This document shows, piece after piece, positions 2,084-21,500 of a DNA stretch of 23,559 nucleotides (the first letter of the stretch is position 1; each line of letters begins with the position of its first letter). The notes under the pieces were generated by a model that was given only the letters and a program-made list of their open reading frames with translations, searched no databases and was not told the DNA's origin. This stretch comes from Lymnaea stagnalis (lineage: Eukaryota): positions 484,790 through 508,348 of the forward strand of contig CAXITT010000282.1 of assembly GCA_964033795.1 (NCBI GenBank), read 5' to 3'. The position numbers and the translations under genes were made by a program.

Positions 2084-2164
2084 ATTCTGGACTGTCTTTG
2101 GAATCCCATCGTTCACGACGAGATGTTAATGCACTATGTATGGGTTATGAAAGAATGTCCTCAG
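2084..2164 (+). CDS. Candidate internal exon (81 nt) with a strong polypyrimidine/AG acceptor and a CAG|GTGAAT donor
   Basis: The acceptor 'ccgttttttttctcttttag' ends at 2083 and the donor 'gtgaat' starts at 2165. Two frames are open. The phase-1 frame gives ..SGLSLESHRSRRDVNALCMGYERMSS(G), and as a phase-1/phase-1 symmetric exon it matches the phase of the downstream candidate exons. Frame 0 gives ILDCLWNPIVHDEMLMHYVWVMKECPQ. Confidence 0.3.
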
Positions 2165-2291
2165 GTGAATACAGTAGCTGCTAGTAGAACTATTCCTATG
2201 TAATAAAGTCATTCATTCTTCTATATTGTTCTATTTTCAACAAAACCTGAACCAAAGTAGCGAACCCAGCCACCTCCAAAACATCTCATTT

Positions 2292-2350
2292 CATAGAACC
2301 GTTTGGGTTGGGGGGGAGTGGGGGGGAGGTGGGGGGTAGGGGGGAGTGGG
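2292..2350 (+). other. G-tract cluster (G7-G8 runs) with G-quadruplex potential
   Basis: 'gggggggagtgggggggaggtggggggtaggggggagtgggggggtg'. It lies on the minus strand of the local small ORF and has no coding support. Confidence 0.6.
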
Positions 2351-2792
2351 GGGGTGTCGAGTGTGCAAGAGTTTTGTAATTTTAAATTCACATTCTTTGA
2401 CATTCCTGATCTATCTGAAGTCTCTGACATACAACCTACGACAATACAGCGAGAATATGTTTTCATGTGACCCTTATGATTAAATAAGACAAAATATTTG
2501 TGGGGTTTTTTTTTGTTATTAATATTGCCTGTCGAACTCATGAATAACAAAATATGCTTTTGGGCACAATATGAAATGAATAATAATTATGAGTCGGTTC
2601 AAGTCTGCCACACAGCAAAAAGTCCGGCAAATTAGTGTAAACTCTTCTGAGATGGATTTCATTGCACTGTGGGAAGCAGCACCTGTTATAGCATATTAAA
2701 TATTTAAGTAGTATTTTTAGATTTGTCAATAGTTCAAAGAGGGAATGCATGATGGGTATTATTGAATGGGATGAATAAATCCACGGAGTGAA

Positions 2793-3290
2793 TGGGTTAA
2801 GTTTGGGCTTCCTGGGTTAAGTTTGGGCTTCCTGGGTTAAGTTTGGACTTCCTGGGTTAAGTTTGGGCTTCCTGGATTAAATTTGGGCTTCCTGGGTTAA
2901 TTTTTAAGCTTCCTGGGTTAAATCTGGGCTTTCTGGGTTAAGTTTGGGGCAGCCTCAATTAGCTTGGGTTTCCTGGGTTAAGTTTGGGACAGCCTTGGTT
3001 AGTTTTTAAATGCCTTGGTTAGTTTAGGCTGCCTCTGTGAGTTTGGGCAGCCTCGGTTAGTTTGGGCGTCCTCGGATAGTTTGGGCATCCTGGGTTAATT
3101 TGGGCAGCCTTGGTTAGTGTGGGCTGTCACAGTTAGTTTAGGCTGCCTCAATTAGCGTTTGACATTCTTGATTAGCCTCAGACAGGCTTAGTTAGCTTTG
3201 GACATCCTTGGTTAGCTTTGGATAGTAGCTGTTAGTTTTTTGTTTGTTTGCAGCCTCAGTTTTGGATAGCCTCAGATTGTTTTCAACAGC
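2793..3290. repeat. 19-20-bp minisatellite ('gggttaagtttgggcttcct' grading into 'gttagtttgggcagcctcg'), copy 1 of 3
   Basis: Tandem units read directly. The same array recurs at 8150-8645 and 9195-9470, each time immediately 5' of the cassette-exon block. Confidence 0.9.
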
Positions 3291-4640
3291 CTCTATAAAT
3301 ATTGGTTCCCATGTCATTTTTTGTTAGATTCACCAATATATACAAATATATTGCTATGATTCTTGGTAATATTAACAACATTAAAAGTGAAAACTTGTGT
3401 GGGTGAAAATCATTGTTAAGCAGACTGGTTAATGTCTTAGCAACATCCGTGCCCCTCGTTTCTGATTATAGTCTATAATATTCCTTTTTGTTTTGACAGA
3501 ATCAGCTGAGCAAGATATTGATTTTGATAGTTTATTGGAATCCTTGGATTATTCTTATGGTGAGAAAGCACCTTAATGGCTGGTTTTGTTTTCAGGTTTA
3601 GAATTGGAGTGCGCTCTATTTATATTTCAGTGGTTTCCAAACTGTTTATGTGTCACCAGGCCCTAGCTGCTTCTAGGTTTTTCCCAAAACACCATCTTTC
3701 AAGTGACTTAATAATAAACGAAATTAAGTTGATTATTATATATTTAAATTAATTTAAAACTGAGACAGTGCAAAACTGAAAGCTATTTATATATAAGCAC
3801 AAAGCATGAGAAACTGCTAACAAAATAGATAAAGTTATAAATTGAGTAGCCCCTGCTAGTATCCATTTGAAAAGGCTTTGCAAAACAGTTATTACAAAGT
3901 GAGTTACTAGTTTGTAATGAAAGCACTAAATATCATGTAACATTACCGGATGACATATTGAACCACTTTGGGGCACCCCTGTGAGAGAGAGCCGTGGCTT
4001 GCCAAAGCGTGCAGCTTAGGCACCTATCTTATATGTTTATACTTTTTCTATATCAACAGCTTTATAAAAGGGAACAGGTACAAAAATGAAAAGTAATAAC
4101 CATAAGGAAACTCTTGACTTTGCAATCAGGAGTTCACTGTACACCATGTGTACACCAGAAAAATATCTATTTGGAAAACAAATTGATTGCATCAAACCCA
4201 TTCAAAATTTCAAATTATTCCGTCCGTTGCGGAGCAATAACCCATCCCCATAACAAAGGCACAGAGCTTGTCATTAGTTAAAACTTAATTATAGTTATTT
4301 CTAGACTCTAGACTCCCAAATTGAACAGAATTGACATGTACATTTGTAAAGGCAAAATAACCAAGTGTCTAATTATAAAAATAAATCTAACTAAAACAAT
4401 GTCATTTAATTCTGAAATTACTGTATCCTTAAAATTTCTTCATCTATACAAAATTGAATTACCAAGTCACAATCTTATCTAATCATAAATTTAATAAATT
4501 TCTTTAAAAAAAAATTGAAGTGTTACAACTGTGTAAATAATAAAATTGGGGTGCAAATGCAGAAAAATTTGATCAACTTACAAAAGAAGGCATACAAATT
4601 CTTTGAAACTTTTCATTAAATTAATTCTCAAGTGGATTAT
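3290..4640 (+). repeat. Cassette-exon-bearing duplicated block, copy 1 (full length, about 1.35 kb)
   Basis: It aligns colinearly with 9470-10800 (full) and 8650-9215 (5' part only) at roughly 85-90% identity. Confidence 0.85.
3500..3559 (+). CDS. Candidate 60-nt phase-1 symmetric cassette exon, copy 1 (..E-SAEQDIDFDSLLESLDYSY-G..)
   Basis: Acceptor 'ttcctttttgttttgacag' and donor 'GTGAGA'. Both the phase-1 and phase-0 frames are open; phase 1 was chosen because it is the phase the strong acceptor at 16100 (E6) requires of the preceding exon. The exon and its splice sites are conserved in all three duplicated copies. Confidence 0.35.
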
Positions 4641-4807
4641 CGGTACTTCAATTTTAATTCACTGCAAAAATTATTAATATTCACACTTTCGATAAAACAA
4701 ACGTTCTTTTGCATTAAAACATATTTACTTCTTTTATTAAAGTCTTCCGCAAATGTGGTGGCCAAATTTGAACAATATCGTCTGTCAAAAAAATTATGAA
4801 GATCTCC

Positions 4808-6440
4808 TTTAGCCAGCTCATAAGCTGACCATGCCACTTTTCCCCTGAAATCTTAGCTCTATATTAGTATATGCAGTACTCATTGTTCAGCATCTGACAG
4901 GATAGAGGTAATCCCTCTGAAAATCTCTCTGGTTACACTACCAAGCCTGGGTCAGATACTTTGTGAAGAATTACCCCTTTAATCCCCAGTGTACTATGAC
5001 TGGAAGGCGAGACATATGCTGGTAAATCATATCCTACTGATCTTAGTCATTGCCATCTGATTTTTCACTCATCTTCTTCCTTAGGCCACATATTATCTCC
5101 TGTTGCAAAGAGTATGTCACCCTGTTCTGAGTGGTCCTCACAAAGTTATTGGAATTTTTCACAAGTTTTTAAAGAACCTTTAAAAGACAAAGATACACAT
5201 CTACTGCATAACATCCCTACACAAACATTTTTAAAAATATAACTCCTCGAACTGTTACGTTAGCGTGATGTAGAAATAAAATACCGCAGCTATTGTTGTT
5301 GTCATAGTTTTGGGTTTGAAATGTTGCATGTTCCAATTGTGGCACACCGGGCAAATCTGTGACCACCAGGACTAATGGTATCTTTTGGTGTTGTACAACT
5401 TTAACAACTCTTAAAATGTCCTCCACCTCTAACGTTACATGTTTGAGAAAAGATGATACAATTGAAGCAAAGGCTGTAGTGATACAACCTTCTAATAATG
5501 ATTCAGCACCTGTTTTCTGACGAGGACTCGTGAGATTAAACAGGTGGAGCAATAAATAATTTACCATGGTGTCTGTCTTAAGCATCTGCATGTCTTACTC
5601 CTTATAATGAAGTCTGATCCATGTGCAGATGATGCATCATCTCAAGATTTCTTCCTTGATGATGTTCTACTAACTTCAACGGAGGAGCAAGCACCCATGA
5701 AAAAGAGCAAGAAAGGGAAAAAAATTTATGGCATGGGGATAAAGTTGGACTCAACTGCACAACCCCCAGCAGGTAGAGTGACAGAACCACTAAACCATTT
5801 TCTTCTTTCTATCAACGCAGCGTAGCCAATTAAAACATTTTGTTTTTTTGAGTCTGAAGTGCTAATTTACAGGAAATACCACAGTAGAAAGTGGAACAAG
5901 AGAGGATGGGACTAGTTAGCCTTGGAAGGGAACTCATCTAAGAGAAGGCAAACTCTGAATTCAAACCAGGAGCCAAAATGATCAATAAATTGATCGTGGC
6001 CCCTCAAAAATAAAGGGCTCTGCGTTTTAGGTGTCCTAAAAGTGGGAGCGGCTGCTGTTTTCTTGTTCAAGTGCAAGATGGATGTACAATTTTTTTCAGA
6101 CAATTTCCTCCGGAAAGGGTGGGAATTTCAGATTTCCGGGTGAGCAGTGCCAGTTGCATAGCTAAGGGTGGGGGGAACAGAAGGGACAAATGTGTCCAGG
6201 CGGCAGACTATTCGGGATGCGAAAATAGAGCTTTTTAATGGGTTTCAGAGTTGGGGGGAGGTGGGATAAAAATGAATCTTGTCCCCTGATGCCCTAACAC
6301 TCCAGCTGCCACTCTGCTAGTGGTGTAAAAAGGGGGTTGGGCATGGATGGGCTGGTCCACCTAGGTTTTTCTTTATATGGAGCGGCAGCATGATCGGACA
6401 ACTGCAGAGTTTGTATCATGAAAGGTGAGTGGGCCAAAAA
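4808..6440. repeat. Segmentally duplicated block R, copy A (about 1.6 kb)
   Basis: Colinear with 11216-12935. It contains one copy of a 50-bp motif (5325-5380) that is expanded sixfold in copy B. No TIRs or TSDs are discernible, so it is treated as part of the tandem segmental duplication, not as a transposon. Confidence 0.8.
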
Positions 6441-7539
6441 TCTTAAGTATGTGAAGGACTTCACTTCTTCCAGTGCCTTTCTTGCCAGAGAGATATGCTA
6501 TTGTTTGGCTGAGTTTACCTTCATGATCATTGTCTTGTTTCATTTATATTGAGTCTGAGCTGTGCTGAAATGGAGAATACGTCTTTCATCTTTTCCTGTA
6601 TTTGTTGCTGGTTGTGGGACAGAAGAAGTGCTACATCATATGCATAGTCTAGGACATTCAGTTGTTTACAGTTTCCCAGAGTGTGCACTGTATCCCGTTC
6701 CTCTTTTTGTCTGTGGATTTTTTCATTATCCAATCAATGGTGAGGATGAATAGGAAAAGGGACAAGAGACATCCCTTCAGTGTCCACTTTAAAGTCATCA
6801 GTGAGTCTACATTCGTGGACCACCCTGCAAAGGTGGTTTTGTATCGTGTTATTAAAGTCTTTAAAACTTGTAAAGTTTGCAAAAAATAAATAATCGAGAA
6901 TACTGATATGTGCGAATTATACAGATAATCAAATTTATTGAGTGCAGCGATATTTCATAGGCTCCAATAATTGTAATTGGTTCAAGGCACCAGTTACTAT
7001 TATTTTTAAAAACATAAAAATAACAATTGCTCTATTTTTTACAAATAAAATATAGTTTCTTTTTATTGTTATAAATTTGTCTTTTTGTGGGGTGGGGTGG
7101 GGGAGTGGGGGCACTTGACTTTCCGTGGGGGAGCCCGGAAAGATTCCTGAAAGTGACACTGAGTGGAATCACTTAACAAGAGTGCATAGAGTTAGAGAAA
7201 TATATCCTACCTAGTTCACATATTCTCTCTGATGGATAGATGGAAGGTTTATGCCAAAATAAATCATATTCATATTAAACATGGAATCTACCAACACTCC
7301 ATTTAGGTATGTCAACAAAACTGCTGCAACCCAAATGATGCTTGCACTGGTGTTCACACAAAGAATGCATAAACTATATCGATGAGCAAGAAACGCAAAC
7401 TGAAAAGATAGTTAGGCATTAGCCACACATCTATCACTTCTTATTCCCTTCATTGTTACTTCAGGGAAAATCTATGATAAACTCAAGCTCTGTTAGCCGA
7501 GATATTATGTTCTTTTCATACATTAAGTTGTTACAATTG

Positions 7540-8135
7540 TTTCTAGTTTTAAAATGTTGTTTTGGCAGGAATATGTGCTAAAATGAATGTGTACAATGAA
7601 ATTAAAAATGTTTGCATTTCATTAGATTAATAGAAGAATCTAATCATATAAAAAGAATAACCTGATAGAATATAGCTCTTCAGACCCAAAAACTACAATT
7701 TGTGAATAGCAGCTGCCGAAGTGCTAGATTAACTTTTTTTCATTTTAACATTAACTCCCACAGAAATTCTTAAACTGAGTGATGATGCCAATTTCATGTA
7801 AGTCTTAGCTTAACTAGTTTTTGAATTCTATTATTTTCTGATAAGTTTGGTCTCAATTCCTGGAAGGCGTATGTTCACTGACCTGATGACAGATGTCCAT
7901 ACTGCACATGTTGGTGGTGCCATGAGACTTGACCGTGTTGATACTATATTTTCTTACTTGCTTGATGCTGACAGTGCAAATTTGGACACAGTGGTCATGT
8001 TTCCCAAGTTTCAGCATCTCATAAACAATCTCGATGAAGTGCATGAAATTCATTTTAAATAAAACATTTCCGCTTTGATGAATCTATGGCTCATCACTTT
8101 GGTCGTCATGGGTGCAGAGAAAGTATTTGGCTAGT
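7540..8135. repeat. Segmentally duplicated block S, copy A
   Basis: Colinear with 13140-13690 at roughly 93% identity. Both copies carry a 71-codon TTG-initiated ORF, but 6 of 8 substitutions between copies are nonsynonymous, so it is not scored as coding. Confidence 0.8.
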
Positions 8136-8149
8136 TTTTTACAGCATTT

Positions 8150-8645
8150 GTTTTTTGGGGCAGCATCGGTTAGTTTGGGCAGCTTCGGTTAGTTTTGGCA
8201 TTCTTGGTTAGTTTGGTTAGTTTGGGCATCCTCTTGGTTAGTTTGGGCATCTTCAGTTTGGGAGCCTCGGTTAGTTTGGGCATTGTTAGTTAGTTTGGGC
8301 ATTGTTAGTTAGTTTGGGCATCGTTAGTTAGTTTGGGCATCCTCTTGGTTAGTTCGGGCATCTTCAGTTTGGGAAGCCTCGGTTAGTTTGGGTAGCCTCG
8401 GTTAGTTTGGGTAGTCTCGATTAGTTTGGGTAGCCTTGGCTAGTTTGGGCATTGTTAGTTAGTTTGGGCAGCCTCAATTACTTTGAACAGCCTATATAAA
8501 TTTGGGTAGCCTTGCTTAGTTTGGGCATCCTCAATTCGTGTGCGACATTCTTGATTAACCTCGGAACGCCTTGGTTAGTTTTGGACAACTTTGGTTAACT
8601 TTGGAGAGCAGCTGTTAGTTTTTTTTTTTTTTTTGCAGCCTCAGT
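8150..8645. repeat. 19-20-bp 'gttagtttgggc...' minisatellite, copy 2
   Basis: Same unit family as 2793-3290. It ends in a T15 run at 8618-8635. Confidence 0.9.
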
Positions 8646-8875
8646 TTTGGATAGCCTCAGATAATTTTGAACAGGCCCTATAAATTCACCAATAAATTTA
8701 GATTCACCATTGTGTACTAATTTTGCTGTGGTTCTTTGCAATATTAACAACATTAAAAGTGAATACTCGTGTGGGTTGAAAGTCATTGTTAAGGAGACAG
8801 TTTAATGTCTTAGCAACATCTGTGCCCCTGACTTCTGATAATCATTTCTAATATTCCTTTTTTTGTTGTTGACAG

Positions 8876-8938
8876 AATCAGCTGAGCCAGATATTGATTT
8901 ATTTAGTGAGACTCAAGCTTTTCAATCCTTGGATGATG
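8876..8938 (+). CDS. Candidate 63-nt phase-1 symmetric cassette exon, copy 2 (..E-SAEPDIDLFSETQAFQSLDD-G..)
   Basis: Acceptor 'ttcctttttttgttgttgacag' and donor 'GTGAGA'. The frame is open and the length difference from copy 1 is +3 nt. Confidence 0.35.
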
Positions 8939-9194
8939 GTGAGAAAGCACCTTAATGGCTCAAAACAGCGGGTTTAGAATGGGAGTGTGCTCTATTTATA
9001 TGTCGGGGTCTCCAAACTGTTTTCGTGTCCCCAGCCCCTTTCTGCATCTAGGTTTTTCCCAAAACACCACCTTTCAAGTGACTTAATAATAAACGATATT
9101 AACTTGATAAATATGTTTAAATGAATTTAAAACTTGAGCAGTGCAAAACTGACAGCTTTTTATATATAAGATACAAAGCTTGAGAAACTGTTAA

Positions 9195-9470
9195 ACAAAT
9201 TTGTCTCAGTTAGTTTTGGGCATTCTGGGTAAGTTTCGGGAGCCTCGGTTATTTTGGGCATCCTAGGTTAGAATGGATAGTTTGGGCATTCTCTGTTAGT
9301 TTGGGCAGCCTCTGTTAGTTTTGGCTGCCACAATTAGCATTGAACATCCTTGATTAGCCTCGGACAGGCTTAGTTAGTTTTGGACATCCTTGATTAGCTT
9401 TGGATAGCAGCTGTTAGTTGCTTTTTTTCAGCCTCAGTTTTGTATAGCCCCAGATAGTTTTGAACAGCCT
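9195..9470. repeat. 19-20-bp minisatellite, copy 3 (short)
   Basis: It follows the truncated cassette block 8650-9215 directly and precedes the full cassette block 9470-10800. Confidence 0.85.
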
Positions 9471-9676
9471 CTATAAATTTTGGTTCCCGTGTCATTTTTG
9501 TTAGATTCACCAATATGTATAAATATATTGCTATGAGTCTTTTCAATATTAACAACATTAAAAGTAAATACTCGTGTGGGGTGAAAGTTAATTTTAAGCA
9601 GCCAGGTTAATGTCTTAGCAACATCTGTGCCCCTGGTTTTTTATGATAGTTTCGAATGTTCCTTTTTTTTGGACAG

Positions 9677-9739
9677 AATCAGCTGAGCCAGATATTTATT
9701 TATGTAGAGAGACGAAAGCTTTTCAATCCTTGGATGATG
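9677..9739 (+). CDS. Candidate 63-nt phase-1 symmetric cassette exon, copy 3 (..E-SAEPDIYLCRETKAFQSLDD-G..)
   Basis: Acceptor 'cctttttttt..ggacag' and donor 'GTAAGA'. The frame is open. Compared with copy 2 there are 4 nonsynonymous and 1 synonymous changes, so there is no sign of purifying selection and this copy may be decaying. Confidence 0.28.
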
Positions 9740-10988
9740 GTAAGAAAGCAACTTAATGGCTCCAAATAGCCACCTGGTCTAATGTTGGCTTTAAAATGGG
9801 AGTGTGCTCTATTTATATGTCAGAGGTTTCTAAACTGTTTTAGTGTCACCTGGCCCTTGCTGCTTCTAGGGTTTTCCCAAAACACCAACTTTCAATTGAC
9901 TTAATAATGAACGATATTAAGTTGATAAATATATGTTTAAATTAATTTAAAACTTGAACAGTGCAAAACTGATAGATATTTATATACAAGACACAAGGCT
10001 TGAGAAACTGCTAAACAAAATTGATAAAGTTATAAATGGCGTAGCCCCTGCTTGTATCCATTTGAAAAGGCTATGGCTAACAGTTATTACAAAGTGAGTT
10101 ACTAGTTTGTACCGAATCCACTAAATGTCATGTAATATTACAGGATGACATTTTTTAACACTTGGCGGCACCCCTGTGAGGAAGCCCTGGCTTTCCACAG
10201 TGTGCATTTTAGGAACCTATCTTATATGTTTAAGCTTTTTCTAGAGCAATGGCTTTATAAAAGTTAAAGGGAACAGGTACGAAAATGAAAAGTAACAACC
10301 GTAAGGAAACTCTTGTTATTGCAATCTGGAGTTCACTGTACACCATGGGTACACAAGAAAAATAGCTATTTGGAAAACAAATTGATTGCATCAACCCCAT
10401 TCAAAATTTCAAATAATTCCGTCTGTCTGTCGGGGAGCAATAACACATCCCCATAACAAAGGCACAGAGCTTGTTATAGTTATTTCTAGACTCCCATATT
10501 TAACAGCATTGACATGTATATTTGTAATGGCGAAATGAAACCAAGTGTCTAATTATGATGTAAAGCTAACTAAAACAATGTCATTTAATTCTGAAATTTC
10601 TATAACCTTACAATTTCTTCACTTATACAAAATCATAAATGAATTACCAAGTCAAAATCTAATTATAAATTTAATTAAAAATTTAAAAAATTGAAGCTTT
10701 ACAACTGTTTAAATAATAAAATTGCGGTGCATTTGCAGACAAATTTGATCAACTTACAAAAGAAGGCATAATAATTCTTCAAAACTTTTCTTTGCATTAT
10801 TTCCTAATGAATCTTTCATACTGGTACTCACACGGATACTCATTCAGATACTCATTCATTCTAATGGCTGCTTAAGCAGGACAAGTGGGTCATCATATCT
10901 GTAGTGTCTGAATGTATTTGTTAGTTTAGTTTATCTAAAAAAATCTGTTCAGATCATTGATGAAAAAAATGTTGAACATATTTTTCAG

Positions 10989-11036
10989 ATAAGCAAAAGA
11001 CATCAAGATTAGCAAAGACATCAGCAGAAGAGGAAG
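10989..11036 (+). CDS. Candidate 48-nt phase-1 symmetric exon (..D-KQKTSRLAKTSAEEE-G..)
   Basis: Acceptor 'atatttttcag' and donor GAAG|GTACAG. Only the phase-1 frame is open; the other two hit TAA/TAG. It has no counterpart in duplication copy A. Confidence 0.3.
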
Positions 11037-11215
11037 GTACAGTAGAGAAGCATGCTTGCATATTTTAACTCTCTTTAAGTTCCTGAATAAATATGTTTTA
11101 GATTAAAATGATAGGTCAAATAATATTTTACAGATTGTATGTGTAAGTTTTGGCATCATTGGGTTTGAACCAATTATTGCAATTACTGCAGACACACGCT
11201 CTATAAAGCCTGTTA

Positions 11216-12935
11216 GACCACTCATAAGCTGACCATGCCACTTTTCCCTGAAATCTTAGCTCTATATTAGTATATGCAGTACTCATTGTTCAGCATCTGA
11301 GATGATAGAGGTAATACCTCTGAAAATCTCTCTGGTTACGGTACCAAGCCTGGGTCAGATATTTGCTGAAGAATTAACCCATTTACCCCCATTGTTCCAT
11401 GACTGGAAGGCTAGACATGTACTGGTAATTTATATCCTACTTATCTTGGTCATTGCCATACGATTTTTTCACACATCTGCTTCCTTAGGCTATAAATTAT
11501 CTCCTGGTGCAAAGATTGGTCATCCTGTTCTAAGTGGTCCTCAAAAAGTGATGGGAATTTTTCTCACATTTTTTAAGCACCATTCAAAGACAAAGAGATA
11601 CACATCCACTGCATTACATCCCTACACTAACATTAAAAAAATATAACCCCTTGAACCGTTATGTTATAGTGAAAAAAAATAAAACACATCAGTTATTATT
11701 GTTGTCATAGTTTTGGATTTGAAACTTTGCATGTTCCAAATTTGGCACACCGGGCAAATCTGTTATCACCAGAATGTTGCATGTTCCAATTTGGGCACAC
11801 CGGGCAAATCTGTTACCACCAGAATGTTGCATGTTCCAATTGTGGCACACCAGACTAAATCTGTGACCACCAGAATGTTGCATGTTCCAATTGTGGCACA
11901 CCAGGCAAATCTGTGACCACCAGAATGTTGCATGTTCCAATTGTGGCACACCGGCCAAATCTGTGACCACCAGAATGTTGCATGTTCCAATTGTGGCACA
12001 CCAGGCAAATCTGTGACCACAAGGACTAATGGTATCTTTTGGTGTTGTACAACTTTAACAACTCTGAAAATGTCCTCCACCTCTAACGTTACATGTTTGA
12101 GAAAGATGACACAATTGAAGCAAAGGCTGTAGTGATGCAACCTTCTGATGACGATTCAGCACTTTTTTTTCTGATGAGGACTCGTGAGATTAAACAGGTT
12201 TACAGGAGATATAGCAGGTGCAACAATAAATAATTTACCATGTGCCTGTCTTAAGCACCTGCATGTCTTATTCCTTATAATGAAGTCTGATCCATGTGCA
12301 GATGATGCGTCATATGCAGCTCAAGATTTCTTCCTTGATGATGTTCTGCAAATTTCTAACAGATGGATAAAGGCTGACCAAACTGCACAACCTCCAGCAG
12401 GTAGAGTTACTGAACCACTAAATCATTTTGTTCTTTCTATCAATTGGGCGTAGCCAATTAAAACATTGTGTTTTTTTAGTCTTAAGTGCTATTTTACAGG
12501 AAATACCACAGTACAAAAAGGAAGAAGGGGCTCTGGGTTTTAGGTTGCCTAAAAAGAGGGAGTGGCTGCTGTTTTCTTATCAAGTGCTAGACAGACGTGC
12601 GATTTATTTCAGACAATTTCCTCGTTAAGAGGGTGAATTTCATATTTTCGGGTTAGCAGTGCCAGTTGCATAGCTGAGGGTGTGGGCTCAGAAGGGACAA
12701 ATGTGTCCAGGCGACAGACTACCGGGTATACCAAAATGGGCTTTTTAATGGGTTTCAGGAGTTTGTGGGGGGGGGGATAAAAATGAATCTTGTCCCCTGG
12801 CGCCAAACACTCCAGCTGCCACTCTGCTAGTGGCGTAAAAAGGGGGGTGGGCATTGATGGGCTGGTCCACCCAGGTTTTTCTTTATATGGAGCGGCAGCA
12901 TGATCAGACAACTGCAGAGTTTGTATCATGAGAGG
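11216..12935. repeat. Segmentally duplicated block R, copy B
   Basis: Colinear with 4808-6440 and offset by about 6.4 kb. Confidence 0.8.
11727..12022. repeat. About 50-bp tandem repeat, roughly 6 units ('gttgcatgttccaattgtggcacaccaggcaaatctgtgaccaccagaat')
   Basis: Units read directly. The orthologous position in copy A (5325-5380) has a single unit, so this is a copy-specific expansion. Confidence 0.9.
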
Positions 12936-13139
12936 TGAAGGGGGCGAAAATTTTGGCCCGCCTGTTGGGGCACTTCAACTAGCTACGTCACTAGGCAGTG
13001 TGACCATCAGCACCAAAATTGGTCATCATTTTTATTGGGAAATAGGGCTGATACCGAGGGCTCCGATTGCTCTTGTGTTGAAGATTGGCATGATACTGTA
13101 TTCTTATCTTAAAAAGATTAATTAAAAAAACAATTAATT

Positions 13140-13690
13140 GATAAAACAATTGTTGTTTTGGCAAGAATATGTGCTAAAATGAATGTGTACAATCAATTAT
13201 AGAAAAAATTTAATTGGATTAATAGAAGAATATTATCAATAAAAGATAGAGACCCAAAAAACCACGATTTGTGAATAGCAGGTGCCAAAGTGTTGGATTA
13301 GCTTTTTTAATTTTAATATTAACTCTCACAGAAATTCTTAAGCTGTTTCTGGATGACGATGCCAATGTCATGTAAATCTTGGCTTAACTAGCTCTGAATT
13401 CCAATATTTTCTGATAAGTTTGGTCTCAATTCCTGGAAGGCGCATGTTCACTGACCTGATGACAGATGTCCATAATGCACATGTTGGTGGTTCCATGAGA
13501 CTTGACCGTATTGATACTTTATTGTCTTACTTGCATGATGCTGACAGTGCAAATTTGGACACAGTGGTCATGTTTCCTAAGTTTCAGCATCTCATAAACA
13601 ATCTCGATGAAGTGCATGAAATTCATTTTAAATAAAACATTTCAGCTTTGATGAATCTAGGGCTCATCACTGGTCGTCATGGGTGCAAAC
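13140..13690. repeat. Segmentally duplicated block S, copy B
   Basis: Colinear with 7540-8135. Confidence 0.8.
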
Positions 13691-14077
13691 AATATAATTG
13701 GGGAAAGCCCATAGTATAGGGTTTGGTTTATGCTTTTCCGTGGTACAACGTGCCTGGGCAAAATATGTTTTTTTCAGCCATATCACGGTAAACATTGTTT
13801 GTGCATCATTTCTCCTTCAGTTGAGAGAAGAACACCCTTGGACAATACCATTTTGCACTTCATAACCTTTTCTCAAGTTTTGCACTTCTTGATAAGCTTA
13901 GTTCAATGGGACGTTAGGGAAAATGCAGCAGTATCAGTGGATTTGGCTAGTGTTCCATTTTTGCAACACCACATAACTCAACAATGGTCACCGTTCCCTT
14001 CAAATTCTTCCTATGTGAATTTTATGTAACCTTCATGAATTTAATACAAAAAATAAATAAAATACAATGTGCAGCAT

Positions 14078-14400
14078 AAATGGGTAAACTGTTGTCGAAG
14101 CGGCAGATTCCCCTGTTTTCGAAGCGGCAGATTCCGCTGTTGTCCAAGCAGCAGATTCCCCTGTTGTCCAAGCGGCAGATTCCCCTGTTGTCCAAGAAGC
14201 AGATTCCCCTGTTGTCGAAGCAGCAGATTCCGCTGTTGTCCAAGTGACAGATTCCGCTGTTGTCCAAGCGGCAGATTCCCCTGTTGTCCAAGAAGCAGAT
14301 GCCCCTGTTGTCGAAGCGGCAGATTCCGCTGTTGTCCAAGTGACAGATTCCGCTGTTGTCCAAGCGGCAGATTCCCCTGTTGTCCAAGAGGCAGATCCCT
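14078..14400. repeat. 24-bp GC-rich minisatellite, about 13 units of 'ccaagcggcagattcccctgttgt' and variants
   Basis: Perfect 24-bp periodicity. It is open in all six frames, which explains track ORFs 14022-14387, 14033-14452 and 14069-14410. Confidence 0.9.
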
Positions 14401-14687
14401 CCTGATCTAGGCTAAAAGATTGATATAAAAATACCATGTACATCAAACCCATAAGCTATGTCTGGCAGCTTAGTTTGGCCATGTACCATGTATTCTTACT
14501 ATATATTTCAGTTTCAGTTTACGCATTTGATGTTTCCTCACATGAAAAGGAAAGAAAGGCTGCATCAGCAGCTGTTGACCAATCAGATCATTGTAGGACT
14601 TCAGTAACATATGAAGATCAGGAAAAAGATCAGGAATCATCAACGTGGTCAAATAATATGTGTAAAAAAAAATTTTCCTTCTTGATT

Positions 14688-15515
14688 TTTTTTTTTTTTT
14701 ACCTTATATCAGTTTCTTTACCTTATAACAAAATTAGAAAAATCAGCACCATTAGACACCTCCTCTCCTTTGATGCCACAAAAACTCTCGTCTCTTCACT
14801 CATTCTTTCAAAATTTGACTACTGTAACACGCTTCTCGCAGGCATACCTCAACACCACATAAACAAACTTCAGAAGGCACAGAACTCAGCATGCAGACTC
14901 ATTTTTTAAATCAAAGAAACATGACCACATTCAACCACACATGCGGCAACTCCACTGGCTTCCAATATCCTCTCGCATCAAGTACAAGTCTGCCAATCTA
15001 TGCTTCAACTCGTTCACTGACCCTCACTTTCCTGTCTATCTCTCTGAACTATTGCTTCCTTACATCCCCACAAGACAACTACGCTCTTTCATTGACAATA
15101 GAACCCTCTCAATCCCAAGAACCAAAACTAAGACCATCGGTGAACGCTCCTTCTACTTCCATGGGCCCACGTTCTGGAGCCAGCTCCCCTTCCATATCCG
15201 TCATTGTGAAACTTCGTCCACTTTCAAAAAGTCCCTTAAAACCCATCTGTTTAGGTCTGCCTATGACCTGTGATGCACCCTCCTTGCCCTGCCTCATTTT
15301 TTGTCTCAGGTTGATCCTGTATAATAGGCCAAAACTTGCCAAAGTGTCCCCGTTTTATAGCCATTTTAATTGTTTCTATAGTATAATAGTTACTATCCTA
15401 GTGTCTCATTTTTATTTTACTTAGTTTACATGTTTTTAATAATTGTAAAGCGCTTAGAGCTTTAAGGTAAGCGCTATATAAAAATGCCTAAATAAATAAA
15501 TAAATAAATAAATAA
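14688..15515 (+). mobile_element. Decayed non-LTR-type retroelement fragment carrying the widespread metazoan 'DYCN...LHWLP...LKTHLF' ORF, with a 5' T-run and a 3' (AAAT)6 tail
   Basis: Translation across two frames gives ..RKISTIRHLLSFDATKTLVSSLILSKFDYCNTLLAGIPQHHINKLQKAQNSACRLIF* followed by a frameshift to ..QLHWLPISSRIKYKSANLCFNSFTDPHFPVYLSELLLPYIPTRQLRSFIDNRTLSIPRTKTKTIGERSFYFHGPTFWSQLPFHIRHCETSSTFKKSLKTHLFRSAYDL*. This motif set occurs as an interspersed-repeat ORF in many fish and invertebrate genomes. The 3' end is 'ctaaataaataaataaataaataaataa' (15490-15515) and the 5' boundary is approximate. Confidence 0.6.
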
Positions 15516-15774
15516 CGGTTATAAATTTTATTAATATTAACTATTTTTATTAGCTTACTAGGCAATACACCCGGTGTTGCTCGGGTTTGGATTCAGAATA
15601 ACTTCTATAGAGTTATCAACTGACATGTAAATTTAAAGCCCAAATTTAATTTTCCAGGACTTCCAGGGGTGAGAGGATGTCCTGGGAATTTATTTTATCA
15701 CACTAGAGAAATCCTAATCCTGTTTCCCAAGCACACGCATGAAGTCAGAATCAGTGTCGGCCAGCCTTCACAAC

Positions 15775-16030
15775 ACACATGACTACCCGCATCCACAACA
15801 TGCACCAGCACCACACCTGACTACACTAGCACCACACCTGACTGCACCAGCACCACACCTGACTGCACCAGCACCACACATGACTGCATCCACAACATGC
15901 ACCATCACCACACCTGACTGCACCAGCACCACACCTGACTGCCCGCATACACAACATCACCAGCACCAAGCCTGACTGCACCAGCAGCACACCTGACTGC
16001 ACCAGCACTACACCTGAATGCACCAGAACC
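15775..16030. repeat. 24-bp minisatellite, about 10 units of 'caccacacctgactgcaccagcac', immediately upstream of the big exon's acceptor
   Basis: Read directly. It generates track ORFs 15739-15975(+) and 15826-16032(-). Confidence 0.9.
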
Positions 16031-16100
16031 ACATGCTTACCTTAATGTTACTCCTTCACATATTAAACTTAGATTACATTAATTGTTTTCCTTTTAACAG

Positions 16101-17383
16101 ATAAGTCGTTGGTCGGTGTGAGGGAAAAGAGCCAAGACCGGATTTACAGACCAGCATTTGCGAAGTCAAAAGCCAGTTATAAACCACCATCCCTCGCGGC
16201 CAGCCTCACTCAACGATCTCAAATTCTTCCAACACAGACTTCTTCTCCAATGAGTTATATGTCACCACTTCAAACTCGGGCCAGCTGCTCACTTGAAATT
16301 GCCCCACCGCCACTTAGAAGCACCTTGGCTACACTACCACTTAATATTCACGTTCCACCACCACCACCACCACCTGGAGGTGGTCCCCCACCACCACCAC
16401 CATCTGGAAGTTGCCCTCCTCCACCACCACCACCTGGATTTTGTCCCCCTCCACCAACAGCTAGAATGTGGGCCCTTCCACCACCACCTTCTGCAGGTTT
16501 TGGTTTTGTTCTACCTGCGCCTGGTAGTGTTGCTCCAGGTTTTGGTTCTGAGCCTCCTTCAGCTGGTAGTTTTGCTCCACGTTTTGGTGGTGGTCCTCCT
16601 ACAGCTGGTAGTTTTGTTCCAAGTTTTGGTGATGGTCCTCCTACAGCTGGTAGTTTTGTTCCAAGTTTTGGTGGTGGTCCTACAGCTGGTAGTTTTGTTC
16701 CAAGTTTTGGTGGTGGTCCTCCTACAGCTGGTAGTATTGCTCTAAATTTTGGTTCTGAGCCTCCTACAGCTGGTAGTTTTGCTCCAAGTTTTGGTTCTGG
16801 TCCTCCTACAGTTGGTAGTTTTGCTTTAGGTTTTGGTTCTGGTCCTCCTACAGTTGGAAGTACTGCTCCATGTTTTGGTGGTGGTCTTCCTACAGTTGGT
16901 AGTATTTTTCCAGGTTTTAAAGCTGGTCCTCCTACAGTTGGTAGTTTTGCTTCATGTTTTGGTTCTGGTCCACCTACAGCTCGTGGTACTGCTTTAGGTT
17001 TTGGTTCTAGTCCTCCTACAGCTAATAGTATTGCTCTAGATTTTGGTTCTGGTCCTCCTACAGCTGATAGTACTGCTTCAGGTTTTGGTTATGGTCCTAC
17101 TGCAGTTGTTAGTGTTGCTTCAATTTTTGCTGGTAGGTCTTCAAGTGATAATTCTGACAGTGAACTTGAGGAAAGTGATAGTTTTTCAGTGTATCAACAA
17201 TCTCCTCCTGAGGTGATAGACTTAGCTCATCAGACCTGTGGCGAGAAGACACCAGAAAAAGGTTTACCCAGCAGTGAGCCTCTGTTCACCTTTGGTATCG
17301 GAGCAAAGTTGACGAGCATAAGAACAAGGGAAGACACCCTTAAAAGTGAGGACTTGGTCAAACTGATGGAGCTCCAACAAAAG
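16101..17383 (+). CDS. Large internal exon of a proline-rich, FG-repeat, low-complexity protein. The N-terminal part is serine/threonine-rich. It is followed by FH1-like polyproline tracts (16357-16462), then about 14 tandem 15-aa repeats 'GGGPPTAGSFVPSFG' (16490-17130), then an acidic serine-rich segment and a heptad-like tail 'DLVKLMELQQK'.
   Basis: A 435-codon open frame (track ORF 16109-17416, whose 'start' is TTG). It is entered through the strong acceptor 'ttgttttccttttaacag' ending at 16100, in phase 1; the in-frame TAG at 16070 lies upstream of the acceptor. The 45-bp DNA repeats stay in frame, including one 42-bp unit, which shows the indels are triplet-constrained. The exon either exits at the AAG|GTGCGT donor at 17383/17384 in phase 0 or runs on to the TAG at 17414-17416. 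Confidence 0.7.
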
Positions 17384-17439
17384 GTGCGTCTGCTGAGGCT
17401 AGAATCTTTGGTATAGTCTTATTTCAATGAGGGTGCATA

Positions 17440-17640
17440 CCGACAGACTTGTAAAGCTTTAATTACCGCCTAACTACCGATAGACTTATAAAGCTTTAAC
17501 TAACAGGAAAATTACAGATAGACTTATAAAGATTTAAATAGGGGCTAATTGCCGATAGACCTTTAAAGCCTTAACTACAGACTAATTACAGATAGACTTT
17601 TAAAGCTGTAAATACAGGCTAATTGCCGACAGCAGAGAAA
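17440..17640. repeat. About 44-bp AT-rich tandem repeat ('ctaattaccgatagacttataaagctttaa...'), roughly 4.5 units
   Basis: Read directly. It lies immediately 3' of the big exon. Confidence 0.8.
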
Positions 17641-17939
17641 CTTTAAATACATGCTGAGTATGAGGGGTCGAACTGAGACAAATCTTGTAATACAGCCTGC
17701 TGAACCTGATCTAAAGTTGAGATTAAGGTGTCTGTATTGGTCTGACTCTGGGTGTAATGGCTCCTGCACTGTGTTCCTTGTGATCTCGAACTTTAAGTCA
17801 TTTCAAAAATTATTATTCCATTAAATTTCAAATTGGTCTTTCAAATGAATAGAATTTCAAATAAGTCCATGTTTAGTAAAAATTGCTTCTTTCCTTTTAT
17901 TTTTTCATCAAAGGTGATAGAGGAAGTCCTGAGGTAGCC

Positions 17940-18400
17940 CACAGCCAGTTTTAGACTAACAGAAAGCATTCCTTACACTTTCTACTAGACTAACACAAGC
18001 ATTCTTAATCATTTTATCATGGACAAACACAATCATTCCTTTTTTACTTTCTACTAGACCAGTGTTTCTCAACCTTCCTAACGCCATGACCCTTTAATGC
18101 AATGCCTCATGTTATGGTGACCTGAATCATAAAATTATTTTCAACGCTTCTTCATATATATGTGTTTTCCGATCGTCTTAGGCGAGCCCTGTGTAAGGGT
18201 TTTTTCAACCTCCAAAGGGGTAATGACCCATAGGTTGAGAACCACTGTACTAGAATAACCCAATCATTCCTTTTTATTTTCTAACAGACAAACCCAATTA
18301 TTCTTAAATTACTTTCTGAAGGACCAACCCAATGATGCTAAAATTACTTTCTCTAGGACGAACCCAATTATTATAAAATTACTTTCTCAATCATTCATAA
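17940..18400. repeat. Degenerate tandem repeats of about 55-60 bp ('..caatcattcctttttactttctactagac..')
   Basis: The array is interrupted by the MITE at 18060-18247. Confidence 0.7.
18060..18247. mobile_element. hAT-like MITE (188 bp) with 15-bp terminal inverted repeats CAGTGTTTCTCAACC / GGTTGAGAACCACTG and an 8-bp target-site duplication TACTAGAC / TACTAGAA
   Basis: The TIRs match at 14 of 15 positions. The flanking 8-mers are 18052-18059 and 18248-18255, and an 8-bp TSD with a CAGTG.. terminus is the hAT signature. The element sits in one unit of the surrounding tandem repeat, and there is no internal ORF. Confidence 0.65.
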
Positions 18401-19188
18401 TAAATTTCTGATGGAATTACTCATTTTTTCCCAAAACATGTACCTGAGGTCATTTGGGGAGCGTTGTGATTGCTCACAGTGGTGAAATGTTTAAAAAACT
18501 TCATTAAGTATTACTACTCAACATCTTGTTTGGACTTTAAGTAAACCAGTAGCTCACTGAAAGCTGTTTCACAAGAGGCTTCACAAAATGTTACTGGATG
18601 GCTCTCTCTCTATTAAAATGGCATTTAAAATGTTGGCTTCTCAAACTTATTTCGTTCTTTGTTTTCATCTACAAGAGCTGTGTGTTCTGCACTGCCACGG
18701 TGTTGAATTAGTTGTTTTTTAAGATCATACTAATTGAATACAGTTTAGGATGAGTCAAGTTAAGTTTCTGAGGAATTTTTCTCCTTTGCAGTTTCAATAA
18801 CGAATCAGGTCTTCCTGAGCATTTGGAGAAAAAAGTATTTAAAAATTTTTAAAAAAAATTTAGCTTTTTTTTTATTGCTGTGGACGATTGAATTTGACAA
18901 GGGCGTACAAAACAATGCATCATGGGAGCAGAGTGTGGCAACCTCTTGTCTAACCCATACATTTCTCATTTCTCTCTCTTTGTCGAACCAATCCATTCCT
19001 CTTTACTCTCTCATGTGTAGCATGTTCGTTTCTCATAACTACCTCTTGCACTAACCCATTCATGCCTCATTACTCTCTCTCCTTGACTAATCCATTAATT
19101 TCTCCTTATTCTTTCCTCATTACTTTATTAGGAGTAAAACATTTTTCCTCAATACTCTCTTATGGTCATCTTTTTCTGTATCTTCCAG

Positions 19189-19288
19189 GATGGTGGCTGG
19201 AATTTGAATTCAGAGCTGGATCAGTTAATCGGGATTGACAGTGCTGCACTGGAGGCCATCTTATACAGCAGTGGACTCTCATCATTGG
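19189..19288 (+). CDS. Candidate 100-nt exon (DGGWNLNSELDQLIGIDSAALEAILYSSGLSSL-G), phase 0 in and phase 1 out
   Basis: Acceptor 'tttttctgtatcttccag' and donor GG|GTAATT. Only one frame is open. Its phase-0 entry matches the phase-0 donor at 17383, and its phase-1 exit matches the entry of the 20313 exon. Confidence 0.5.
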
Positions 19289-19439
19289 GTAATTCTTTAT
19301 AAAGGGAGGGAGGGGGGGTTGATTGACTTTATTGATTATGTCTATCCTTCATTCACATTATGTCTCCATCAGTTGACATTCATTCACCATGATGGGATGA
19401 GGGAGCTCAATTAGATGTTTAAGTGGGCAAATGAGAGGA

Positions 19440-19915
19440 GTGATGGCCAGAGAGAGGCCGGAGAGGGGCCAGAGAGAGATCTTAGAGACTAGAGAGGGGC
19501 CAGAGAGAGGCCGGAGGGGCTAGAAGTTAGGTATGTTGTTTTATGGAGGAGAAGATGTGCAGTGAGATGGAGAAGTAAAACAGTCGGGATGGTGGGTATT
19601 ATAATAGAGTATAAGGGGAAGAGCAGTGTATAGAGTAGACATTTGTAGTAGATGTTTGGAGTAGATGTTTGGAGTGATGTATGGAGTAGATGAATGGAGT
19701 AGATGTATGCAGTAGATGTTTGGAGTATATGTATGGAGAAGATGTTTGGAGCAGATAGTTCATAAAGAATTATAAATTAATATCAAATCTTCTAAATAAT
19801 ATACGTGTGACTGCTTTGAATTTTTTGTTTTTCGATTTTTAGGAAGCAACAACAACAACATGAGACATATCCGTAATCAATATCATTATTTTATATACTT
19901 AACAAAATTTTGGAA
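19440..19915 (+). repeat. Dispersed repeat family, copy 1. It has GGCCAGAGAGAGG repeats, then an embedded (GGAGTAGATGTW)n 12-bp satellite (19633-19757), then a conserved 3' tail '..catgagacatatccgtaatcaatat..'.
   Basis: Colinear with 23030-23559 in the same orientation, including the unique flanks on both sides of the satellite. Confidence 0.8.
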
Positions 19916-20312
19916 ATTTACATTTCAATTTGATTGAATTTATAAATTTGAAATTAAAAAAAAAATTACTGTACTTTGGAGGAGCTCCCAAAAGTATGAG
20001 CACAAGCTGTGTCCCTGGATCTTTGTCCCTAGATTTTCCCACTTAATTTAAATCTTTCTTTTTTTTCTTTTTTTTTTTTACTTAATACACATAACTCTAA
20101 AAAAATCCCCACAAAATAACAAGATCATGAAAAATCTACTAAATAATGTTTTCTGTGTAATCATTGCAACCACTTGTTTTTTCCCCCCAGGCAAATTCTA
20201 ATTTAATATATTTCATTTTAAGGTTGGGCAATGACCCCTATTGCTGTACATGTACTTTTATACATTTTTTTTATGAACGCCAACCCTTGTTAATTTCATA
20301 AAATTTATACAG

Positions 20313-20659
20313 GGGCAACTGCCGAAGGAAAAATTAGGAGCTATTTGGCAATGCTGTTGGTTCTTTTCTCCTTCCTGGAACTCGTACATTTTGATGTTGA
20401 TGTAGAAAAGTTTGTCTCCAAACATTTTTCTGAAGATGACATAATAGCTCTAGGCTCAAAATTAGAGCTGGCAGTGGAAGCGTGTGAGTGGGATGAAGAC
20501 CAGCTACATGCCTTATCTGAAGCTTTTGAAAAGATGTTTAAGTTTCATGATGAGTTTACCTCCAGACATCCACTTGTTTACAGCACCCTGGAGCTGGGCA
20601 AGAGCTGGGCAGATGTAGTCAACAAGCTCATGACACCACCAGGCTATTTCTTTCTTTAG
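20313..20659 (+). CDS. Candidate terminal coding exon (G-ATAEGKIRSYLAMLLVLFSFLELVHFDVDVEKFVSKHFSEDDIIALGSKLELAVEACEWDEDQLHALSEAFEKMFKFHDEFTSRHPLVYSTLELGKSWADVVNKLMTPPGYFFL*)
   Basis: The acceptor 'ttcataaaatttatacag' ends at 20312. The open frame (track ORF 20345-20659, TTG 'start') extends back to the acceptor in phase 1, and the G left over from 19288 plus GG gives Gly. It ends at a TAA at 20657-20659. An ATTAAA poly(A)-signal variant lies at about 20762. Confidence 0.5.
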
Positions 20660-20761
20660 ACAATGACCTCATAGTTCTTGACCAGGTCCACCTGTCTGCC
20701 GCACAGGTATCAATGTGGCAGTGACATCACAATAGACAAAAGCAGCCCCCATGCTGCTTAT

Positions 20762-20767
20762 TAAAAT
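20762..20767 (+). promoter_or_regulatory. Possible polyadenylation signal ATTAAA
   Basis: 'gctgcttattaaaattg' lies about 100 nt after the stop codon of the candidate terminal exon. AT-rich hexamers are common in this DNA, so the support is weak. Confidence 0.25.
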
Positions 20768-21149: not shown

Positions 21150-21500
21150 TAAGAAATTGTTGTCAGAAAAATGTTCAGATTTTGAACCTGTGTTTTCAAA
21201 ATGAAGGTATACTCAAAATGATTATTACTTTTACCCAGAGCAATTATCTCCAAATACCCTCTCCTCCCTCCTCCCCCCCCCCCCATTTATTTCTAAATCT
21301 TTTTTTAAAAAAAATGTATCCATGTTAAAATTGTTGTCAGAAAAATGTTCAGATTTTGAACCTGTGTTTTCAAAATGAAGGTATACTCAAAATGATTATT
21401 ACTTTTACCCAGAGCAATTATCTCCAAATACCCTCTCCCCCCTCCCCCCCCCCCCCCCATTTATTTCTAAATCTTTTTTTAAAAAAAATGTATCCATGTT
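21150..21500. repeat. About 175-bp tandem duplication (2 units), each ending in a C-rich tract (CCTCCCTCCTCCCCCCCCCCC)
   Basis: Units at about 21155-21328 and about 21329-21500 are nearly identical. Confidence 0.85.

Follow-up and report, generated by a model that had tools for sequence, protein, structure and literature searches.

In a 23,559-nt stretch of the Lymnaea stagnalis genome (GCA_964033795.1, contig CAXITT010000282.1, positions 484,790-508,348 of the forward strand; hereafter the window, numbered from its first nucleotide), we identified what is very probably the 3' half of a protein-coding gene on the + strand. The C-terminal domain of its product is a PARP4-type major vault protein (MVP) interaction domain (MINT, also MVPID; Pfam PARP4_MVP-ID), which follows a disordered region rich in proline and in phenylalanine-glycine (FG) repeats. 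The gene is an ordinary protein-coding one and a newly found member of the known PARP4-MINT family. Its model is right at the 3' end, and its 5' part consists of candidate exons placed by splice consensus and open frames only. The window itself looks like eukaryotic genomic DNA with long introns; it is AT-rich (GC 30-48%), minisatellites detected with Tandem Repeats Finder (TRF) are abundant throughout, and the sole long open frame lies at 16109-17416 on the + strand. An Rfam scan of the window returned nothing at the gathering thresholds.

A first-pass annotation, made from the sequence, had chained splice signals between positions 2084 and 20767 into a multi-exon gene by agreement of reading phase. 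Its 3' part comprises three exons and a possible polyadenylation signal:

16101-17383, + strand: large exon, 1283 nt, phase 1 in and phase 0 out; its acceptor AG ends at 16100 and its donor reads AAG|GTGCGT.
19189-19288, + strand: internal exon, 100 nt, phase 0 in and phase 1 out, encoding DGGWNLNSELDQLIGIDSAALEAILYSSGLSSL(G) inside MINT; tblastn matches from many homologues.
20313-20659, + strand: terminal coding exon, 347 nt, phase 1 in, encoding the remainder of MINT and ending in a TAG stop codon at 20657-20659; matched by tblastn, by the alignment and by PARP4 in the PDB.
20760-20765, + strand: possible polyadenylation signal ATTAAA, about 100 nt past the stop codon, recognised by its letters only.

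These three exons, together with the phase-0 and phase-1 introns that separate them, are correct and have been conserved in evolution. When 1.84 billion representative sequences were searched exhaustively with phmmer, 18 proteins matched, each at its extreme C-terminus and the best of them at E 4.9e-17 with 40% identity. Word-indexed protein searches with the C-terminal 230 aa and the 160-aa domain as queries gave no match, and the profile form of that search returned four short ENA fragments and nothing else. The phmmer matches include proteins from Aplysia (auto-named POM121), Plakobranchus, Elysia, Candidula, Haliotis ('PARP4-like') and Nucella, and proteins from Pinctada ('PARP4 MVP-ID C-terminal domain-containing protein') and Potamilus (2363 aa). 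They also include a PARP4-like protein of Liolophura (2150 aa) and PARP4 proteins of Lingula, Tubulanus and Branchiostoma. The multiple alignment, which we refer to as A1, is ungapped through both exon joins. The 3' end of the large exon aligns with the homologues right up to its junction, the invariant residues G65, S68 and G70 (GLSSLG) span the 19288|20313 join, and a further invariant motif, LELGxxW, is encoded in the terminal exon. Because the homology continues across both junctions, the last three exons are clearly beyond chance.

The positions of the introns point the same way. In Aplysia, where we mapped the junctions one by one (the assembly has gaps and mismatches relative to the RefSeq protein), a phase-0 intron falls at ..SQNG|AGYW, the next exon is exactly 100 nt long, and a phase-1 intron interrupts SSL|G. 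The PARP4-like gene of the chiton Liolophura has a phase-0 intron after ..AAQKK| and a phase-1 intron at |G KMV, which implies a 100-nt exon between them. Lymnaea, Aplysia and Liolophura therefore share one gene structure in the MINT region: the 100-nt exon is preceded by a phase-0 intron, placed ahead of DGxW, and followed by a phase-1 intron that splits the glycine of SLG. An intronless Logan contig from a related mollusc, which is probably a transcript, runs uninterrupted through the region. Most of what the first-pass annotation had said of this part of the gene stands. The large exon has a strong acceptor ending at 16100 and is entered in phase 1, so that a phase-1 partner is required; the AAG|GTGCGT donor at 17383, in phase 0, joins the exon at 19189 (phase 0 in, phase 1 out) with ungapped homology and conserved introns. 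The phase-1 join of 19288 to 20313, with its glycine assembled from G plus GG, falls within the invariant GLSSLG of the homologues, and ATTAAA is indeed present about 100 nt past the stop codon, at 20760. The stop codon had been given as TAA; the sequence at 20657-20659 reads TAG.

The MINT domain starts at about 17348, in the large exon, and only 5-10 residues separate its end from the stop codon, which is also the case in all of the 17 aligned homologues. A profile built from A1 (the Lymnaea sequence and 16 homologues) matched human PARP4 residues 1572-1707 in the PDB at E 2.8e-22, with the runner-up at E 0.13, and the single Lymnaea sequence reached PARP4 residues 1574-1669 at E 0.0022. AlphaFold predicted a ten-helix domain with pLDDT 88 and pTM 0.84. 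Residues 31-90, which cover both exon joins, are the best-predicted part of this confident model (pLDDT 95-97), in agreement with the globular C-terminus that had been proposed earlier. The best Foldseek match was 9bw6_B, PARP4 in the human vault cage (probability 1.00, E 5.6e-3, TM-score 0.64 by target and 0.49 by query), and the runner-up reached a probability of only 0.38. Because the superposition on 9bw6_B has an rmsd of 5.9 Å, the agreement is at the level of the fold only.

The human MINT domain (PARP4 residues 1562-1724) is necessary and sufficient for docking on MVP repeats 3-5 at the inner vault wall, with S1614, K1618 and R1689 highlighted as contact residues between MINT and MVP, and MINT serves as a tag for loading cargo into engineered vaults (PMC12280208). 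No human protein other than PARP4 contains a homologue of the MINT domain (PMC10450202); VWA5A, considered as a second carrier of this C-terminal domain, was dropped in view of that report. Human MINT (PDB 9bw6, 9bw7 and 11jf; PF26156) is likewise C-terminal, all-helical and about 150 residues long. It has the DGxW, G(L/I)xSLG and LELGxxW motifs in common with the Lymnaea domain, including S1614 at the MVP interface, which is conserved as the invariant S68. A long disordered linker precedes MINT in human PARP4 too; that of Lymnaea is rich in proline and FG repeats. However, the identity between the human and Lymnaea domains is only about 19-25%.

The linker is encoded by the large exon, whose product consists, in order, of a Ser/Thr/Lys-rich stretch, three poly-Pro (PPPPPPP) tracts (at about 16354-16488), the repeats, an acidic Ser-rich stretch and the first MINT helix. 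The repeats are 15 copies of a 42-nt (14-aa) FG-type unit at 16494-17119 (82% matches, 1% indels in TRF) with a consensus of approximately GFGSGPPTAGSFAPS, and the 220-aa repeat core holds 14 FG dipeptides and 9 charged residues (4%). FG nucleoporins likewise have spaced FG dipeptides (PSFG, GFG, CFG, NFG) in weakly charged spacers rich in G, P, S, T and A. However, the Lymnaea product has no nucleoporin domain and MINT is its sole folded domain, so that the likeness is one of composition. A Pfam search with the whole 680-aa model found no Nucleoporin_FG or POM121 match, none even at E ≤ 1; the linker of the Liolophura PARP4-like protein matches Nucleoporin_FG at E 1.8e-8.

Similar layouts of poly-Pro, G/F/S/T repeats and MINT occur in the models from Aplysia, Plakobranchus, Elysia and Pinctada. 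Aplysia XP_005096629.2, auto-named 'nuclear envelope pore membrane protein POM 121', is 39% identical to the Lymnaea product over MINT and has in common with it, as do the Plakobranchus and Elysia models, the order of a short acidic repeated motif, poly-Pro, FG-type repeats, an acidic Ser-rich stretch and MINT. Its repeat unit is GGATFGS rather than GFGSGPPTAGSFAPS, and SPTSPAYSPT repeats are additional in Aplysia. The names POM121, RPB1 and SRRM1 that relatives carry appear to mirror low-complexity similarity and not orthology; the relatives labelled in this way, or as SRRM1-like, are in fact PARP4-MINT-domain proteins. At the Aplysia locus (KB941528.1, 13543-15749), residues 196-336 of XP_005096629.2 were not found in the assembly, which has a run of Ns at the expected place (14694-15746). 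Since these residues fall in the N-run, the public Aplysia model was partly built from other evidence.

Upstream of the large exon, the following candidate exons and the duplication that holds several of them were delineated:

617-706, + strand: candidate exon, 90 nt, phase 1 in and out, encoding SYTRQIVWEEKAKARVPEPQRVRLSKEAL; boundaries ag|..|gtaagc with an open frame; outside the range of the first-pass annotation and speculative.
2084-2164, + strand: candidate exon, 81 nt, phase 1 in and out, encoding SGLSLESHRSRRDVNALCMGYERMSS; strong pyrimidine tract and cag|gtgaat donor; present in the crude splice scan.
3500-3559, + strand: candidate cassette exon A, 60 nt, phase 1 in and out, encoding (E)SAEQDIDFDSLLESLDYSY; splice sites as in B and C.
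8876-8938, + strand: candidate cassette exon B, 63 nt, phase 1 in and out, encoding (E)SAEPDIDLFSETQAFQSLDD.
9677-9739, + strand: candidate cassette exon C, 63 nt, phase 1 in and out, encoding (E)SAEPDIYLCRETKAFQSLDD; possibly decaying.
10989-11036, + strand: candidate exon, 48 nt, phase 1 in and out, encoding (D)KQKTSRLAKTSAEEE.
3030-13701, no strand assigned: tandem segmental duplication, made up of unit A (3030-8130), a partial unit B' (8137-9200) and unit C (9202-13701).

Every boundary of the resulting 8-exon model is canonical (AG|...|GT), and joining the exons in these phases yields a single open frame of 680 codons. In-frame stops shut the frame of each exon 16-61 nt upstream and 12-31 nt downstream of its splice sites. 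The 60/63/63-nt and 48-nt segments have just the canonical boundaries, lengths and symmetric phase 1 that had been claimed for them. The count of seven phase-1 exons does not hold, since six exons entered in phase 1 lie inside 2084-20767 and a seventh candidate is found only outside that range, at 617-706. According to this model, the large exon would be an internal exon fed in phase 1 by upstream exons, and the 60/63/63-nt acidic candidates, products of the tandem duplication of an intron-exon unit of about 5 kb, are plausible cassette exons. Because they are phase-symmetric, these candidate cassettes would be freely skippable.

In every duplication unit a 19-20-nt 'GGTTAGTTTGGGC' satellite comes first and a single cassette next, and the pattern gacag|AATCAGCTGAG...ATG|gtRagaaag is common to A, B and C. 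The cassettes are paralogous copies in a tandem segmental duplication of about 5 kb; their phase agreement is therefore inherited and provides no independent evidence. When the exons are re-aligned by hand, instead of taking the MAFFT gaps, the differences between A and B fit in-frame indels of 9 nt and 6 nt, and, heavily though they have diverged locally, all three cassettes have kept their splice sites perfect and their phase-1 frame open. The cassette of unit C is a mosaic, with an A-like upstream flank and a B-like exon core and immediate downstream sequence, which suggests gene conversion or recombination; it also carries motif-breaking changes (D to Y and F to C). The 10989 candidate falls within a unique 410-bp stretch of unit C, to which nothing in unit A corresponds.

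Several results weigh against this reading of the gene, both in the domain and upstream of it. The positions of K1618 and R1689 are both threonine in Lymnaea, and Lys or Arg is kept there in several mollusc homologues. A local Pfam scan was blank for the Lymnaea protein, whether entered as the whole model or as the isolated domain, and also for two homologues (P0003 and P0006) that are annotated elsewhere with PF26156; given that these annotated homologues went unmatched as well, the PF26156 model seems to be absent from, or insensitive in, the local Pfam copy. Coding sequence for the BRCT, PARP, VIT and VWA domains was not found in the window by tblastn with the full-length Potamilus, Liolophura, Tubulanus and amphioxus proteins. 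A and C are 85-90% identical along the duplicated unit, but only 52-69% identical over the 3' half of the cassette and some 40 nt of intron right behind it, so that the cassette core is the least conserved part of the unit. Cassettes B and C are separated by 5 changes in 63 positions, four of them non-synonymous and one synonymous. Because the B/C changes are mostly non-synonymous and the A/C exon identity is low, we see no sign of purifying selection on the cassette peptide.

Comparison of the upstream peptides with the homologues adds to these points. In Smith-Waterman alignments of the upstream exon peptides with 17 homologues, each with 100 shuffles, none scored above the controls (shuffle z ≤ 2.5 for the cassettes and the 617 and 2084 exons, and up to 3.1 for the 48-nt exon). 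The PAEDLISFSQ motif of Aplysia was not significant as a counterpart of the cassettes (z 1.0). The 'FDSLE' of Potamilus, considered as a counterpart of the upstream peptides, was unconvincing (z 2.5). A crude consensus splice scan listed 61 AG..GT candidate pairs on the + strand and 16 on the - strand. Nine of the former are open in phase 1/1: three inside the large exon, those at 2084, 3500, 8876 and 9677, and two mini-exons at 3631-3702 and 6680-6739 whose open frames are apparently due to chance. None of the 16 pairs on the - strand is open in phase 1/1. The scan missed the 10989 exon because its pyrimidine tract is weaker. Two further candidate exons, at 5613-5773 and 12284-12399 (DDASSQDFFLDD...), were rejected as parts of this gene, as they start with a stop in phase 1 and their lengths are not multiples of 3.

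What we see may be the 3' end of a complete PARP4 orthologue whose BRCT, PARP catalytic, VIT and VWA exons lie upstream of the window, and we regard this as having a chance not far short of even. Such exons could lie outside the window, since it extends upstream of the first candidate exon by only some 2 kb, and the phase-1-open candidates at 617 and 2084 would let the frame continue upstream. The homologous domain forms the C-terminus of long proteins named PARP4 in Potamilus, Liolophura, the nemertean and amphioxus; of these, the two that were scanned with Pfam, those of Potamilus (2363 aa) and Liolophura (2150 aa), carry BRCT, VIT and VWA, with a PARP catalytic domain seen in Potamilus only. 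Potamilus KAK3593675.1, Liolophura XP_064611003.1 and Tubulanus XP_074640441.1 have the same C-terminal domain, and Liolophura has the same two intron positions. The linkers of the lophotrochozoan PARP4-like proteins resemble that of Lymnaea in their FG-type repeats, acidic stretches and giant linker exon; the FG-repeat linker of Liolophura also lies in one giant exon.

However, these full-length proteins differ from the Lymnaea product in having BRCT, VIT and VWA N-terminal of the linker, of which tblastn showed no trace in the window. The named relatives nearest to the Lymnaea product are gastropod models, 630-903 aa long, which lack BRCT, PARP, VIT and VWA, and the best match (P0001) carries a ubiquitin-like domain instead of the PARP4 N-terminal domains. 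In Aplysia XP_005096629.2 the initiator methionine stands just 16 residues before the acidic repeats, and BRCT, PARP, VIT and VWA exons were not found by tblastn in the 10 kb upstream of the gene. The 2084 exon of Lymnaea holds two in-frame ATGs (MGYERMSS.. and MSS..), which are possible start codons. The gastropod gene models that lack the PARP4 N-terminal domains may nevertheless be truncated.

Another explanation, which we consider quite conceivable but would not favor, is that only the last three exons are real and that the small upstream segments are mostly or all chance open segments in a repeat-rich duplicated intron. The true upstream exons could then lie elsewhere or outside the window, or transcription or translation could begin near or in the large exon, where the first in-frame ATG reads ..SSPMSYM... 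This fits the upstream peptides, which have no homology above shuffled controls, and the paralogous cassettes, whose intron flanks are conserved as well as or better than the exon and whose B/C changes are mostly non-synonymous. It also fits the stop-to-stop windows of the mini-exons, which are only 93-144 nt long, and the two further phase-1/phase-1 candidates of the crude scan. On the other hand, all copies keep (Y)AG|AATCAGCTGAG... and ATG|GTRAGAAAG with the frame preserved and indels in multiples of 3, the strong acceptor of the large exon calls for a phase-1 partner, and nine such candidates occur on the + strand versus none on the - strand.

Relatives, moreover, show repeats of an acidic motif or cassette in this part of the protein. 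In Aplysia, a phase-1 intron comes right before a triplicated acidic SPPAEDLISFSQ motif that lies within a single exon; these three PAEDLISFSQ motifs share one exon (phase 1 in, phase 2 out), whereas Lymnaea has three separate duplicated candidate exons. PARP4-like RefSeq isoforms of the nemertean Tubulanus differ by a duplicated, alternatively spliced acidic cassette of 22 aa (DIYSDD.KE.SD...), which may be compared with the candidate cassettes of Lymnaea. By analogy, the Aplysia motif and the nemertean cassette may serve as leads for the upstream exons, not as tests of them. Taken together, there is a slightly better than even chance that one or more of the cassettes are true exons, and it is rather doubtful that the full upstream chain is right as written. 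The argument of the first-pass annotation that so many phase agreements are unlikely by chance holds for the last three exons, with homology over both junctions. For the upstream half it was overstated, because homologue matches are missing, the cassettes are not independent of one another, and chance candidates of the same kind occur.

That the locus is a pseudogene, copied from a MINT-domain gene and without function, is highly improbable: its setting is rich in repeats and transposons and cassette C bears motif-breaking changes, but the 427-codon frame is intact through the 42-nt repeat array (whose period and indels are frame-preserving), all invariant family residues are kept, all splice sites are canonical and the structure model is confident.

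Molluscs possess MVP and vaults. As a member of the PARP4-MINT family, the Lymnaea gene product most likely enters the vault lumen by means of its C-terminus, to judge from its homology with human PARP4. Docking by MINT would place the disordered Pro/FG-rich tail inside the particle. Because only S1614 is kept and the positions of K1618 and R1689 are threonine, MVP binding is inferred rather than shown. A more far-reaching proposal, which we consider improbable, is that gastropods have a stand-alone vault-lumen protein without PARP, VIT or VWA, in which MINT is combined with a nucleoporin-like FG/poly-Pro tail and duplicated, alternatively spliced acidic cassettes, and in which a cohesive FG phase that fills the inside of the vault captures or filters cargo. 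If this were true, the protein would form a molecular link between vaults and nuclear-pore-type selectivity, and the automatic annotations as POM121, RPB1 and SRRM1 would be concealing a family.

Our analysis gives an identity to a low-complexity gene tail that could not otherwise be annotated. Divergent invertebrate MINT domains on FG/Pro-rich tails represent added natural variation at the MVP interface, and these FG/Pro-rich MINT proteins raise the idea that FG-repeat material is present inside the vaults of some animals. The tandemly duplicated phase-1 mini-exons are a small case of exon duplication, with nothing surprising in kind.

Two observations concern the homologues. In two mollusc MINT proteins, the best match (P0001, ..DDDMGFGLFD..) and the Pinctada protein P0010 (..DDDMAFSLFDD..), an acidic run is followed by a motif that closely resembles the conserved C-terminal tail of ribosomal P-stalk proteins; the Lymnaea cassettes (DIDLFSE, DIDFDSL) are just loosely similar to this motif. 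In homologue P0016 (7300 aa, ENA), 12 separate stretches match the N-terminal half of MINT, which suggests a tandem array of a MINT sub-domain.

The window also contains possible remnants of mobile elements. On the + strand, 14680-15520 encodes a decayed peptide similar to the C-terminal part of a reverse transcriptase (..LILSKFDYCNTLLAGIPQHHINKLQKAQNSACRLIF.., then ..LHWLPISSRIKYK..), interrupted by a stop or frameshift and terminating in a (AAATAAAT)n tail at about 15490-15515. It looks like the 3' end of a non-LTR (long terminal repeat) retrotransposon, going by its likeness to typical reverse transcriptase tails of long interspersed nuclear elements; a Pfam scan of it gave no reverse transcriptase match. 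The distal part of the duplicated unit (4809-8130 and 11213-13701) contains 124-aa open reading frames (ORFs) on the - strand, at 5217-5591 and 11766-12140, and a + strand ORF ending in TAA, at 7814-8062 and 13357-13635, with about 96% identity between the copies. Neither the 5217-5591 (-) nor the 7814-8062 (+) ORF had a Pfam match. The copies of the + strand ORF differ by 2 synonymous versus 10 non-synonymous changes, so that it is not evidently coding. These ORF-like pieces may be an old transposon carried along with the duplication.

Other repeats are distributed along the window. A 50-nt tandem repeat at 11727-12020 (5.9 copies, 93% matches) lies in unit C; because unit A has a single copy (at about 5320-5370), the expansion took place after the duplication. 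A 24-nt minisatellite of 13 copies at 14089-14404 gives rise to spurious long ORFs in several frames on both strands (14022-14452), and a 21-nt TGCACCAGCACCACACCTGAC array occupies 15801-16033, about 70 nt upstream of the acceptor of the large exon. Two copies of a repeat element, at 19440-19880 in the last intron and at 23040-23540 downstream of the gene, have the flanks GGCCAGAGAGAGG.. and ..ATGAGACATATCC[GA]TAATCAATAT.. around a 13-nt GGAGTAGATGTTT satellite. Also downstream of the gene, 21154-21500 is a 174-nt tandem duplication with 98-99% identity that includes a poly-C tract.

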